A DNA stretch of 64,000 nt, taken from a virus. Position numbers and translations under genes: made by a program. Positions 44,715 to 46,095 of the stretch are shown piece by piece; the first letter of the stretch is position 1, and the number at the start of each line of letters is the position of its first letter. Below the pieces are notes generated by a model, which was not told where the DNA came from, made no database searches, and was given only the letters and a program-made list of their open reading frames with translations. The stretch is taken from the UHGV virus genome UHGV-0131811; one strand, written 5' to 3'.

Positions 44715-44797
44715 TGGCATGGGACGGAGGAGTTGAACCCCTTTGAAACGGTGTTGGAAGCCGTTGCTCATGCCTTAGAGTCTTAACATCGTCCCAT
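44715..44797 (-). tRNA. tRNA-like gene, atypical (83 nt); anticodon undetermined
   Basis: Acceptor ATGGGAC/GTCCCAT (8 bp possible), T-loop TTCAACT, CCA; D region about 7 nt too long and anticodon arm cannot be placed unambiguously. Confidence 0.4.
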
Positions 44798-44934
44798 ACT
44801 ATAATTCGAAGCTTACCGTATTATCTCAACACTGTAAAGCCCCTTCTCAGATTATTTACATGTTCTGGAAAACATGAGATACAGACCACCTCCCTACAGG
44901 AAGACCCGCTAAGGTCGTCTAAGTAATCTGCTAA

Positions 44935-45282
44935 CTAATATTTTGCATGTCTTACCCTATGGCAATTTGAACATAGCAAAACACATTTGTCAAGTTCATC
45001 TTTTAGTTCTTGAGAGAACTTAAGGCTTTTCCTATGACCAATGTTAAAATCTTTATCTGAAGGATTCAAATGATGGAAGTCATACACTGCTGGATGATAC
45101 TTCTTACCACAATCATGACAAACCCCACCTTTGTACTCAATAGCTAAGAGTTTAAGTGCTCTTTGTCTTTCTATGGTTTGCTCATTAACACACTTTTTAC
45201 AGTATGAATGAGTTCTCCTACCATCTTTCATGTAGAAATCATTTTCATCCTTGCTAAGTTTGCACCTAATACAAGTTTTCAT
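44935..45282 (-). CDS. HNH endonuclease inside tRNA array
   Basis: CIRCKL...CKKC and CHDCG...HHLNP...CSNCHRVRH (two zinc knuckles plus HNH core). Track N-terminal extension to 45333 overlaps the adjacent tRNA-like gene, so start trimmed to the internal Met. Confidence 0.65.
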   Translation of the reverse strand: MKTCIRCKLSKDENDFYMKDGRRTHSYCKKCVNEQTIERQRALKLLAIEYKGGVCHDCGKKYHPAVYDFHHLNPSDKDFNIGHRKSLKFSQELKDELDKCVLLCSNCHRVRHAKY

Positions 45283-45296
45283 GATTTCTCCAAAAT

Positions 45297-45378
45297 TGGT
45301 CGAGGCGGCAGGACTCGAACCCGCATACTCCACTTACTCGGTTAACGGCGGTTTAGAAGACCGCTGAGATACGCCCCG
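45297..45378 (-). tRNA. tRNA-like element with canonical acceptor/T-arm but atypical D/anticodon region
   Basis: Acceptor CGGGGCG/CGCCTCG, T-arm GCGGG-TTCGAGT-CCTGC, CCA; interior has hairpin GCGGT-CTTCTAA-ACCGC only 9 nt after the acceptor, so no standard cloverleaf; the hairpin carries the recurring GGTCTTCT spacer motif. Confidence 0.35.
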
Positions 45379-45626
45379 TAATTATCTTTAAAGACTCTCT
45401 TAGAAAGCCCTTAAAGATGCCCACCTTATTAATCATACCGTGGGCGAGTACGCCAAATTCTTTGATGAGGGATTGGAAGACCTCACTGGTGTTTAGCCTA
45501 TCAAGCTACTGCCAGAAAAACATTGTCGTTTGCATTTATTTTAAATTTGCAAAATAGACGCTACGCAACGAAAACTAAGGTTACTATAAAGTAGTCACAT
45601 CTCAATGTCAACAACTTTATTGAAAT

Positions 45627-45702
45627 TGGTACTGGTAGGTGGAATCGAACCACCGATGTTCCCTTATCAGGGGAGTGTTATAACCTTCTTAACTATACCA
45701 GC
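45627..45702 (-). tRNA. tRNA-Ile (GAU)
   Basis: Acceptor GCTGGTA/TACCAGT, anticodon loop CTGATAA, T-arm GGTGG-TTCGATT-CCACC, CCA. Confidence 0.65.
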
Positions 45703-45703
45703 T

Positions 45704-45780
45704 TGGAGGTTCAGATGGGAATCGAACCCACATTCATAGGGCTTATGAGACCCTTGCATTACCTTATCTGCGACTGAACC
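45704..45780 (-). tRNA. tRNA-Met (CAU)
   Basis: Acceptor GGTTCAG/CTGAACC, anticodon arm AGGGT-CTCATAA-GCCCT, T-loop TTCGATT, CCA. Confidence 0.65.
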
Positions 45781-45784
45781 ATAT

Positions 45785-45860
45785 TGGTAGAAGTGGAGGG
45801 ATTCGAACCCATCGCCTGTCAGATTAAAAGTCTGCCGCATCACCATTCTGCTACACTTCC
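45785..45860 (-). tRNA. tRNA-Lys (UUU)
   Basis: Acceptor GGAAGTG/CACTTCT, anticodon loop CTTTTAA, T-loop TTCGAAT, CCA. Confidence 0.65.
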
Positions 45861-46044
45861 ATTAAATTACCTTTGTAGATAAGCTACCCAGACTTGCTTA
45901 AGGTCTGTAGCGATGTGCCTTTTTGGGTTTAAATCTAGAATTTACCCATTCACCCTTTGTGGTCGCATACTCACAGGTAAGCTTAATAACTTATCTACAA
46001 AGATAATTACCAGACCGTTGTTTATCATCTTAAGTGCTACCATT

Positions 46045-46095
46045 ACACCAACTCGACATCTGCCGAGTGAAGGAATCGAACCTTCGCCTTTTCTT
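46045..46095 (-). ncRNA. tRNA fragment-like element (perfect T-arm plus 3' acceptor strand, no matching 5' half)
   Basis: GAAGG-TTCGATT-CCTTC then ACTCGGC-A, but no complementary 5' acceptor or D/anticodon arms within 120 nt; no CCA. Confidence 0.3.

Follow-up and report, generated by a model that had tools for sequence, protein, structure and literature searches.

A 64,000-nucleotide (nt) stretch of the UHGV virus genome UHGV-0131811 (hereafter the window) contains, within a long array of transfer RNA (tRNA) genes, three tRNA-like elements that deviate from the standard cloverleaf, and these appear to belong to two different kinds of RNA. Sequence comparisons and gene context make it most likely that elements 1 and 2 are functional tRNAs of deviant structure, namely a tRNA-Trp(CCA) and a tRNA-Arg(UCU), respectively. 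Element 3, by its predicted fold, is not a tRNA but a circularly permuted tRNA-like domain of a Y-RNA-like RNA, which is encoded downstream of a gene for a Ro60-like protein. We assign this joint reading, namely, aberrant but functional tRNAs in the case of elements 1 and 2 and a part of a Y-RNA-like RNA in the case of element 3, a probability of roughly 0.6. The original prediction had described the three as tRNA-like elements of irregular structure and had offered pseudo-tRNAs, intron-containing or split tRNAs, and tRNA-mimic RNAs as explanations, with Y-RNA models among its proposed checks. Its descriptions hold at the positions given in Table 1, all on the minus strand; of its explanations, that of a tRNA mimic survives for element 3, in the form of a Y RNA, whereas elements 1 and 2 are better read as non-canonical tRNAs. 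All three are conserved far above chance and, on the comparative evidence set out below, are real RNAs that are neither decayed pseudogenes nor interrupted by introns.

The window derives from a Felixounavirus, its array region being 94-98% identical to Felix-O1-like phages, with Escherichia phage Alf5 as the best BLAST match. Among the 25 canonical tRNAs of the array, neither ARAGORN nor Rfam found a tRNA-Trp(CCA) or a tRNA-Arg(UCU). ARAGORN, the check set beforehand as a possible refutation, missed all three elements and did not fold them as ordinary tRNAs; relaxed-score, intron, and mitochondrial modes were also tried, and only the mitochondrial mode called element 1. That call, Trp(cca), was rejected for its shifted register and misplaced CCA, as was a low-threshold “Pyl(cta)” call on the wrong strand. 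In Rfam, too, elements 1 and 2 are not ordinary cloverleaves: element 1 has no match to the tRNA model RF00005, its best Rfam score being 16.9 bits with tRNA-Sec, and element 2 scores 31.7 bits against a gathering threshold of 29 only with the D arm deleted and 20 nt inserted. The models of transfer-messenger RNA (tmRNA), permuted tmRNA, tRNA-Sec, and the tymovirus tRNA-like structure gave weak sub-threshold matches driven by the T arm, and were set aside.

Element 1 combines a perfect acceptor of 7 base pairs (bp; AUGGGAC/GUCCCAU), followed by G73 and an encoded CCA, with a T arm of 4 bp and one A.C mismatch; its variable loop, at 5 nt, is normal. Its D region is indeed over-long, as had been noted: the connector between the acceptor and D stems comprises 9 invariant nt, GAUGUUAAG, as against 2 (positions 8-9) in a canonical tRNA, and leads into a 3-bp D stem with an 8-nt loop. 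The anticodon arm, previously termed ambiguous, proves to be a clear one (ACGGC-UUCCAAC-ACCGU, anticodon CCA) with 4 bp and a C31.A39 mismatch, the loop reading UUCCAAC or CUCCAAA. The element is conserved in ~260 Ounavirinae records, and covariation could be judged against the divergent relatives in Citrobacter phage Michonne and Pectobacterium phage Arno162. In these, the anticodon stem AACGG/CCGUU is replaced by GUAAG/CUUAC and GUAGG/CCUAC, the D stem CUC/GAG is replaced by CAC/GUG, and the acceptor pairs 1-72 and 2-71 show compensatory changes, with the anticodon CCA and the 9-nt connector unchanged. The identity elements of Escherichia coli TrpRS are A1-U72, G73, and the anticodon CCA, and element 1 carries all of them. 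A tRNA-like gene in a metagenomic phage (L166, ~515-600; comparison loci are cited by L numbers) shares with element 1 the GAUGUUAAG connector and the UUCAAAGGGGUUCGA T-arm region, and it has the anticodon UUU (Lys) and a clear 8-bp acceptor in which G8 is paired with C65. Since the connector occurs there with another anticodon, it seems to be a transferable module. The G8-C65 pair can also form in element 1, at positions invariant within Ounavirinae, to give an 8-bp acceptor and a 4-bp T stem, and its presence in L166 thus makes an 8/4 acceptor/T reading of element 1 possible.

Element 2 has the 7-bp acceptor (CGGGGCG/CGCCUCG, followed by A and CCA), 5-bp T arm, single internal hairpin, and 23-nt segment that had been described for it. 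It lacks a D arm and has a 7-nt linker, UAUCUCA, in its place. BLAST searches recover it at 83-90% identity in unrelated phage families with differing flanks: 340-380-kilobase Asteriusvirus-type jumbo phages (PHA46, SP27, and BF17), the T5-like Klebsiella phage Sugarland (Sugarlandvirus), and Vequintavirinae (BIS47, VivaForever, and others). A pattern scan of IMG/VR yielded 62 loci, and once other analyzed loci were added, 32 distinct true homologs were available, from these groups, Felixounavirus, and many metagenomic viral contigs. Across these, pairing in the acceptor, anticodon, and T stems amounts to 99.4%, and both partners have changed in 14 pairs. The covariation score of 0.77 compares with 0.22 in shuffles, none of 500 of which reached it, and with at most 0.18 for slid partners. 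All five anticodon-stem pairs covary, as does the acceptor. Outside the helices, essentially no variation is seen in GUAUCUCA, the loop CUUCUAA (anticodon UCU), the segment CRUUAAYCGAGUAANNGGAGUAUG, and GUUCGA; the collecting patterns fix most of these bases, and their invariance is backed independently by an alignment derived by BLAST from five phages. Within the 23-nt segment, a 3-bp mini-hairpin (YYG/YGG) is always pairable and varies on one side only, and the bases of a conceivable UCUC/GAGU pairing around the anticodon arm are invariant, its strand direction being reversed relative to a canonical D stem. In ~50 arrays examined, element 2 always lies within the tRNA array and on the tRNA strand, and all but two of these arrays (L117 and L142) lack a canonical tRNA-Arg(UCU). 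A blastn search of 5,426 complete E. coli genomes gave no match that would indicate a host origin.

The gene for element 2 also has a recurrent neighbor. An HNH gene lies immediately 3' of it in the window phage, in the Salmonella jumbo phage PHA46 (L082, 972-1490), and in Klebsiella phage Sugarland (L083, 983-1492). A shared mobile cassette was considered and rejected, as the HNH proteins of the window and PHA46 are not detectably related. A better account is that homing took place independently beside a conserved RNA gene, and element 2 would then mark a site at which homing recurs.

The strongest argument for a role in translation comes from the occupancy of equivalent slots in 20 distinct Ile-to-Ser intervals of Ounavirinae arrays. 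Elements 2 and 1 occur together in nine of these intervals, a canonical tRNA-Arg(UCU) accompanies element 1 in eight, and element 2 accompanies a canonical tRNA-Trp(CCA) in the remaining three; in none are both versions of either tRNA present, or neither. This either/or pattern argues that elements 1 and 2 do the work of tRNA-Trp(CCA) and tRNA-Arg(UCU). In arrays with the canonical tRNA-Trp (L001, 2860-3264, which is VpaE1_ev78; L114; and L127), an extra 405-nt open reading frame (ORF) lies between Trp and Ser. Since it accompanies the canonical tRNA, the swap with element 1 is better seen as a cassette exchange than as point divergence. The abnormal cores of the two elements share a loose pattern, GUUAA-N2-(CUC or GAG)-UAA-N0-2-GG (window 44782-44766 and 45346-45330). 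The codons AGA and AGG, the rarest of the host, together make up 53% of the Arg codons in the long ORFs of the window.

Under the favored reading, elements 1 and 2 would be aberrant tRNAs that retain an acceptor with encoded CCA, a T arm, a covarying anticodon arm, and an invariant anticodon loop. Element 1 would depart from the norm by an extra 7 nt separating its acceptor stem from its D stem, or alternatively by an 8/4 acceptor/T branch, and element 2 by an invariant 7-nt linker that replaces the D arm and an invariant 23-nt segment that precedes the T arm. Both would undergo the same processing as the adjoining tRNAs, receive their amino acids from the host TrpRS and ArgRS, and read UGG and the phage-favored AGA/AGG codons.

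Element 3 presents a different picture. The T arm and 3' acceptor strand attributed to it are borne out, but the 5' partner held to be absent is in fact present, on the 3' side of the T arm: GUCGAGU lies just 3' of ACUCGGC, and the “acceptor” is therefore a closed hairpin (ACUCGGC-AGAU-GUCGAGU), which is followed by a D arm. The element forms the interior of a longer YrlA-like RNA, here termed Yd, in which a closing stem, V hairpin, T arm, acceptor-like hairpin, and D arm succeed one another, and whose ends pair as AAGACCGUU/AACGGUCUG beside a UUUACAGCAA motif. Three short paralogs, Ya, Yb, and Yc, share with Yd the arrangement AAG-stem-UUACAGCAA...stem-CUG and are devoid of the tRNA-like insert. 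The Ya stem is compensatory relative to those of Yb and Yd, the paralog stems being CCGUU/AACGG versus CCAAU/AUUGG. In a hand-picked alignment of the tRNA-like module (T arm, 7-8-bp hairpin, and D arm) from seven divergent phages, with one row trimmed by one base pair, 96% of the positions are paired and 11 of the 16 pairs are changed on both sides; the sequences of the acceptor-like hairpin are entirely different among these phages. In one further locus (L042, 6735-6834), a Y-like closing stem and motif surround a complete tRNA-Thr(UGU) in canonical order, as called by ARAGORN, rather than a permuted domain. In the loops of several short RNAs with the ACAGCAA motif (L013, 8410-8470; L023, 8399-8456; L067, 6837-6893; and others), the AGCAA pentamer occurs two to three times at a spacing of ~14-16 nt, which suggests multiple binding sites.

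The four RNAs are encoded 340-1170 nt downstream of a Ro60-like ORF, on the same strand. This gene, which belongs to the DUF2828/DUF7788 family and directly precedes the array, opens a same-strand unit that runs on into the tRNAs and Y-like RNAs. Its product was modeled by AlphaFold2 (AF2) with a pLDDT of 86, and the top Foldseek matches of the model in the PDB are full-length Deinococcus radiodurans Rsr, Xenopus Ro60, and Thermus phage phiLo Ro60, with E-values of 4e-7 to 2e-6; the alignments to 2nvo, 2i91, and 9l5y span ~510-540 columns at TM values of 0.48-0.64. A phmmer search of the protein against the PDB gave no match at E<=1. At least 710 phage records contain a homolog, which in some mycobacteriophage genomes bears the annotation “Ro-like RNA binding protein”. 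A 2024 preprint reported that gp130 of phage Bas63 is structurally Ro60-like and counters the “ppl” defense system, and its authors guessed that downstream “tRNA genes” might be Y RNAs, without naming which. Bas63 gp130 is likely an ortholog of the window protein.

The association between gene and RNAs extends well beyond Felixounavirus. It was assessed in 75 divergent viral loci that carry a homolog of the Ro60-like protein at 38-47% identity, by pattern scans with strand and shuffle controls, an alignment with MAFFT having lost the register of the 3' stem. A strict pattern (G-stem6-N3-CAGCAA...stem-CUG) has 69 matches on the gene strand, as against 5 on the other one and 0-3 after shuffling, and 43 of the 69 fall within 500 nt of the gene. 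Columns outside the pattern are also constrained, with an A before the G in 66 of 68 RNAs and a U before (A/U)CAGCAA in 65 of 68; the median length of these RNAs is 64 nt, and 11 of the 68 have a T-loop. With a relaxed pattern, at least one copy lies beside the gene in 46 of the 75 loci (5-8 in shuffles), and a stem is found at the fixed offset in 53% of nearby CAGCAA sites, as against 16% on the opposite strand. Inspection by eye identified the same RNAs beside the gene in Mycobacterium phage Chaser (three copies), Listeria phage LMSP-25 (three), and Campylobacter phage F371 (two). Thus, a family of small ACAGCAA RNAs flanks Ro60-like genes in very diverse phages. By our proposal, the short stem formed by the ends of Yd and the adjoining UUACAGCAA motif would together constitute a binding module for the Ro60-like protein, and the resulting RNA-protein particle would act on host or phage RNA.

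Two of these loci deserve mention in their own right. In Chaser (L185, 3930-4210), three GUGGAC...ACAGCAA...GUCCAG RNAs occur in the unannotated 380 nt that follow the “Ro-like RNA binding protein” gene, and the second of them has a T arm, 7-bp hairpin, and D arm. In LMSP-25 (L186, 5308-6455 and 799-873), the Ro60-like gene is near genes for an RtcB-type “tRNA splicing ligase” and a metal-dependent phosphohydrolase and near a “tRNA-OTHER”, a set that echoes the bacterial rsr-yrlBA-rtcBA RNA-repair operon. In the window itself, other spacers of the array fold far better on the minus strand than their shuffles do: 45861-46009 (z=-6.8), 43854-43949 (-4.0), 46227-46289 (-4.6), 45379-45626 (-3.9), 44356-44611 (-3.1), and 47019-47183 (-4.2). 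The first of these corresponds to a ~140-nt RNA with a closing stem of ~27 bp. Being neither tRNA-like nor of the ACAGCAA type, these structured spacers may be further small RNAs or processing signals.

Table 1. Positions of the RNA elements, their parts, and associated genes in the window
Feature	Position	Strand	Parts and remarks	Basis
Element 1, non-canonical tRNA-Trp(CCA)-like RNA	44715..44797	minus	5' acceptor strand 44791-97; connector GAUGUUAAG 44782-90; D arm ACUC-UAAGGCAU-GAGC 44766-81; anticodon arm (CCA) 44748-64; T arm 44726-42; 3' acceptor strand + GCCA 44715-25	fold, covariation, slot occupancy
Element 2, D-arm-less tRNA-Arg(UCU)-like RNA	45297..45378	minus	acceptor 45372-78; invariant linker UAUCUCA 45365-71; anticodon arm GCGGU-CUUCUAA-ACCGC 45348-64; invariant 23-nt segment 45325-47; T arm 45308-24; 3' acceptor strand + ACCA 45297-307	fold, family alignment, covariation
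Yd, YrlA-like RNA holding element 3 (46045-46095)	46010..46138	minus	~130 nt; AAG + 5' stem 46130-38; UUUACAGCAA motif 46122-31; V hairpin 46090-106; T arm 46069-85; 7-bp acceptor-like hairpin 46051-68; D arm 46034-48; 3' stem + CUGG 46010-19	fold, paralogs
Yc, short paralog	46155..46226	minus	GAAGACCAAAUUCAGCAAG...CUUGGUCUGG	shared ends and motif
Yb, short paralog	46619..46680	minus	GAAGACCGUUUACAGCAA...ACGGUCUGG	shared ends and motif
Ya, short paralog	46777..46847	minus	GAAGACCAAUUACAGCAA...UUGGUCUGG	shared ends and motif
Ro60-like gene	47184..48599	minus	471 amino acids (aa); DUF2828 + DUF7788 (helical + vWA domain)	Pfam, AF2, Foldseek
Canonical tRNA array	41444..47018	minus	25 tRNAs	ARAGORN, confirmed by Rfam
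HNH homing-endonuclease ORF	44935..45282	minus	115 aa; inserted between elements 2 and 1

Several observations weigh against the joint reading. The major identity element of E. coli ArgRS is A20 in the D loop, and because element 2 has no D loop, and hence no A20, its charging is uncertain. L117 and L142, both outside Ounavirinae, hold element 2 together with a canonical tRNA-Arg(UCU), and simple redundancy is therefore not the whole story. Moreover, outside its helices element 2 hardly varies across unrelated phages; such constancy is greater than we would expect of an ordinary tRNA and may point to a specific protein partner. With regard to the Y-like RNAs, the Rfam Y RNA models do not match those of the window, and the GNCGAAN0-1G motif of the Ro-binding helix of YrlA is absent from Ya-Yd, which have U(U/A)ACAGCAA instead; the seven sequences behind the covariation of the tRNA-like module were, as stated, chosen by hand. 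Finally, the neighboring gene product has no Pfam TROVE match, only DUF2828 and DUF7788, and is therefore Ro60-like by fold only.

The main rival for elements 1 and 2 is that they are uncharged tRNA mimics rather than translation adaptors, acting as decoys or sponges for a tRNA-targeting defense nuclease or a tRNA-modifying enzyme, or else as ligands of the Ro60-like protein. We consider this unlikely, though it is the best placed of the alternatives. The invariance of the anticodon loop and core sequences across unrelated phages, the GUUAA...UAAnnGG pattern common to both elements, and the presence of element 2 beside a canonical tRNA-Arg(UCU) in L117 and L142 would all suit such a role, and phage tRNAs are known to counter anticodon nucleases. 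Several observations nevertheless argue for adaptors: in all 20 Ounavirinae arrays compared, each slot is filled either by the element or by the canonical tRNA (Trp or Arg(UCU)); the phage uses AGA/AGG heavily; and element 1 retains the TrpRS identity elements, with the 3' CCA encoded. On the side of a mimic, element 2 lies directly upstream of the Ro60-like gene in three non-Felixounavirus loci (L089, L107, and L144), but in L089 and L107 this proximity is shared with RNAs of the ACAGCAA type and may be mere clustering of small-RNA genes.

A comparable question can be raised of the ACAGCAA stem RNAs, the carrier of element 3 included, which might not be ligands of the Ro60-like protein but processing or punctuation signals, or independent small RNAs that travel with tRNA clusters. 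They are interspersed among tRNAs in the array, where other spacers are strongly structured too. However, in L013, L018, L023, and Mycobacterium phage Chaser, they flank the gene with no tRNAs nearby; their strand and distance biases are toward the gene; and their architecture parallels that of the YrlA RNAs, which are encoded beside Ro60 on the same strand. We therefore regard this alternative as improbable.

That the elements are functionless, decaying pseudo-tRNAs or homing-endonuclease debris, as the HNH gene between elements 2 and 1, the failure of tRNA finders, and the “tRNA-OTHER” or “pseudo” labels of such elements in public records might suggest, is barely credible in light of their 95-100% conservation across >200 Felixounavirus records, the maintenance of every helix by compensatory substitutions, and the recurrence of element 2, noted above, in unrelated phages with differing flanks. 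Furthermore, the HNH ORF is optional, being missing from relatives whose Ile-Ser interval is 562-569 nt, and elements 1 and 2 are kept with or without it in the arrays compared. Equally far-fetched is the proposal of intron-containing or split tRNAs that would be joined into canonical cloverleaves: the extra 7 nt of element 1 and ~20 nt of element 2 are superficially insertion-like, and an RtcB-type ligase is encoded near the Ro60-like gene in some relatives, but removal of no contiguous stretch of element 2 leaves a D arm, conservation is highest in the very sequences that would be inserted, group I and other intron models in Rfam do not match the elements, and element 3 has its “missing half” in cis, though in a permuted arrangement, with no second half needed.

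Phage tRNA sets are under-annotated, given that RNAs of the element 1 type and the widespread element 2 family escape standard finders and yet appear to fill essential slots. If charged, the two elements would widen the structural limits of bacterial-type tRNAs; on this more modest reading, element 2 would be a translationally active bacterial tRNA architecture without a D arm. They may also show how phages evade tRNA-targeting immunity. As for the Ro60-like DUF2828 protein, no RNA partner had been known for it before, and conserved candidates, one of them with a tRNA-like domain, can now be named. This makes the putative Ro60-like particle and its mechanism directly testable, in a setting where the likely ortholog from Bas63 is a reported counter-defense factor.

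Both non-canonical tRNAs find partial parallels in known systems. Like metazoan mitochondrial tRNA-Ser(AGY/AGN), element 2 has acceptor, anticodon, and T arms with a short linker in place of the D arm; it differs in its origin, which is bacterial-phage rather than organellar, and in its canonical T loop, additional invariant 23-nt segment, and extreme conservation. Irregular tRNAs occur in phage tRNA clusters and can be translationally active, as seen with the allo-tRNAs (Mukai et al. 2017, PMC5389517). The 8/4 tRNAs described there (PMC5389517) have an 8-bp acceptor and a 4-bp T stem, a geometry that is also available, through G8-C65, to element 1 and to the related RNA of L166. However, element 1 is without the long variable arm and the Sec-like 6-bp D stem with tetraloop, its anticodon is that of Trp (Lys in L166), and the GAUGUUAAG connector is not a described feature of the 8/4 tRNAs.

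The closest parallel to Yd is the bacterial YrlA RNA, which has a tRNA-like domain with T arm, acceptor-like stem-loop, and D arm in that order and with paired ends, and whose gene adjoins that of Ro60 in the same orientation (Chen et al. 2014, PMC4201824). Common to both are the adjoining same-strand gene of the Ro60 type, the end-pairing stem, and the permuted V/T/acceptor/D interior (PMC4201824). In both, short paralogs without the full tRNA-like domain adjoin, YrlB being the counterpart of the Ya-Yc type (PMC4201824). The differences lie in the closing module, which in the phage RNAs is AAG-stem-U(U/A)ACAGCAA...stem-CUG rather than a bulged helix containing GNCGAA, in the placement of the window protein in the DUF2828/DUF7788 family, and in the embedding of the window RNAs in a tRNA array. 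The protein itself matches Ro60, Rsr, and phiRo60 (PDB 2NVO, 2I91, and 9L5Y; PMC12135203) over the full length, with a helical (HEAT-repeat) ring and a vWA domain, at an identity of 12-14% and from another Pfam family. As with phiRo60 (PMC12135203), the gene is phage-encoded and adjoined by genes for small structured RNAs; in the case of phiLo, Yrl1 and Yrl2 were identified by their CGAA motif, whereas the gene-adjacent RNAs of the window are without it.

A more distant lead comes from the Class I RNAs of Dictyostelium (RF01414), the only Rfam family touched by the phage ACAGCAA RNAs. The window copies score 12.8-20.1 bits and two distant phage copies 28.9 and 30.8 bits (E-values of 2e-4 to 5e-4 in small windows), all in the same register, while the gathering threshold of 41.5 bits is reached by no RNA in 132 kilobases of loci. 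Thus, the phage RNAs are similar to Class I RNAs but fall outside RF01414, and homology is unproven. Class I RNAs are ~60 nt long, with a 5' AAG, a covarying terminal stem of ~6 bp, a 3' CUGU, a variable loop, and clustered genes; an 11-nt motif, CCUUACAGCAA, lies beside the 5' strand, and the 5' G pairs with the C of CUGU (Kjellin et al. 2021, PMC7919456). They have been reported as unique to dictyostelids (PMC7919456). The phage RNAs share with them the AAG and CUG(U) ends with the G-C pair between these, the stem of ~6 bp with its compensatory changes, UUACAGCAA just 3' of the 5' strand, the variable loop, the A/U-richness, the length of ~60 nt, and the clustering, so that every published feature is matched except for the spacing. 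In contrast, the spacing from the 5' G to CAGCAA is one nt shorter in the phage RNAs, some of which carry the tRNA-like insert, and these are of phage rather than dictyostelid origin and have no DUSE promoter. The known partner of Class I RNAs is the RNA recognition motif protein CIBP, with no Ro60-like partner reported, and a literature search for a DUF2828 gene in Dictyostelium gave none. On such sequence likeness, it is distinctly unlikely, though well worth pursuing as a testable lead for RNAs whose function has been unknown for 20 years, that the two groups are of the same kind in evolution or mechanism. If they were, Class I RNAs would be Y-RNA-type partners of a Ro60-like (DUF2828) protein, and in this regard it is relevant that DUF2828 has been reported from plant gene studies and from mimivirus-like proteins, a reach that extends into both eukaryotes and giant viruses.

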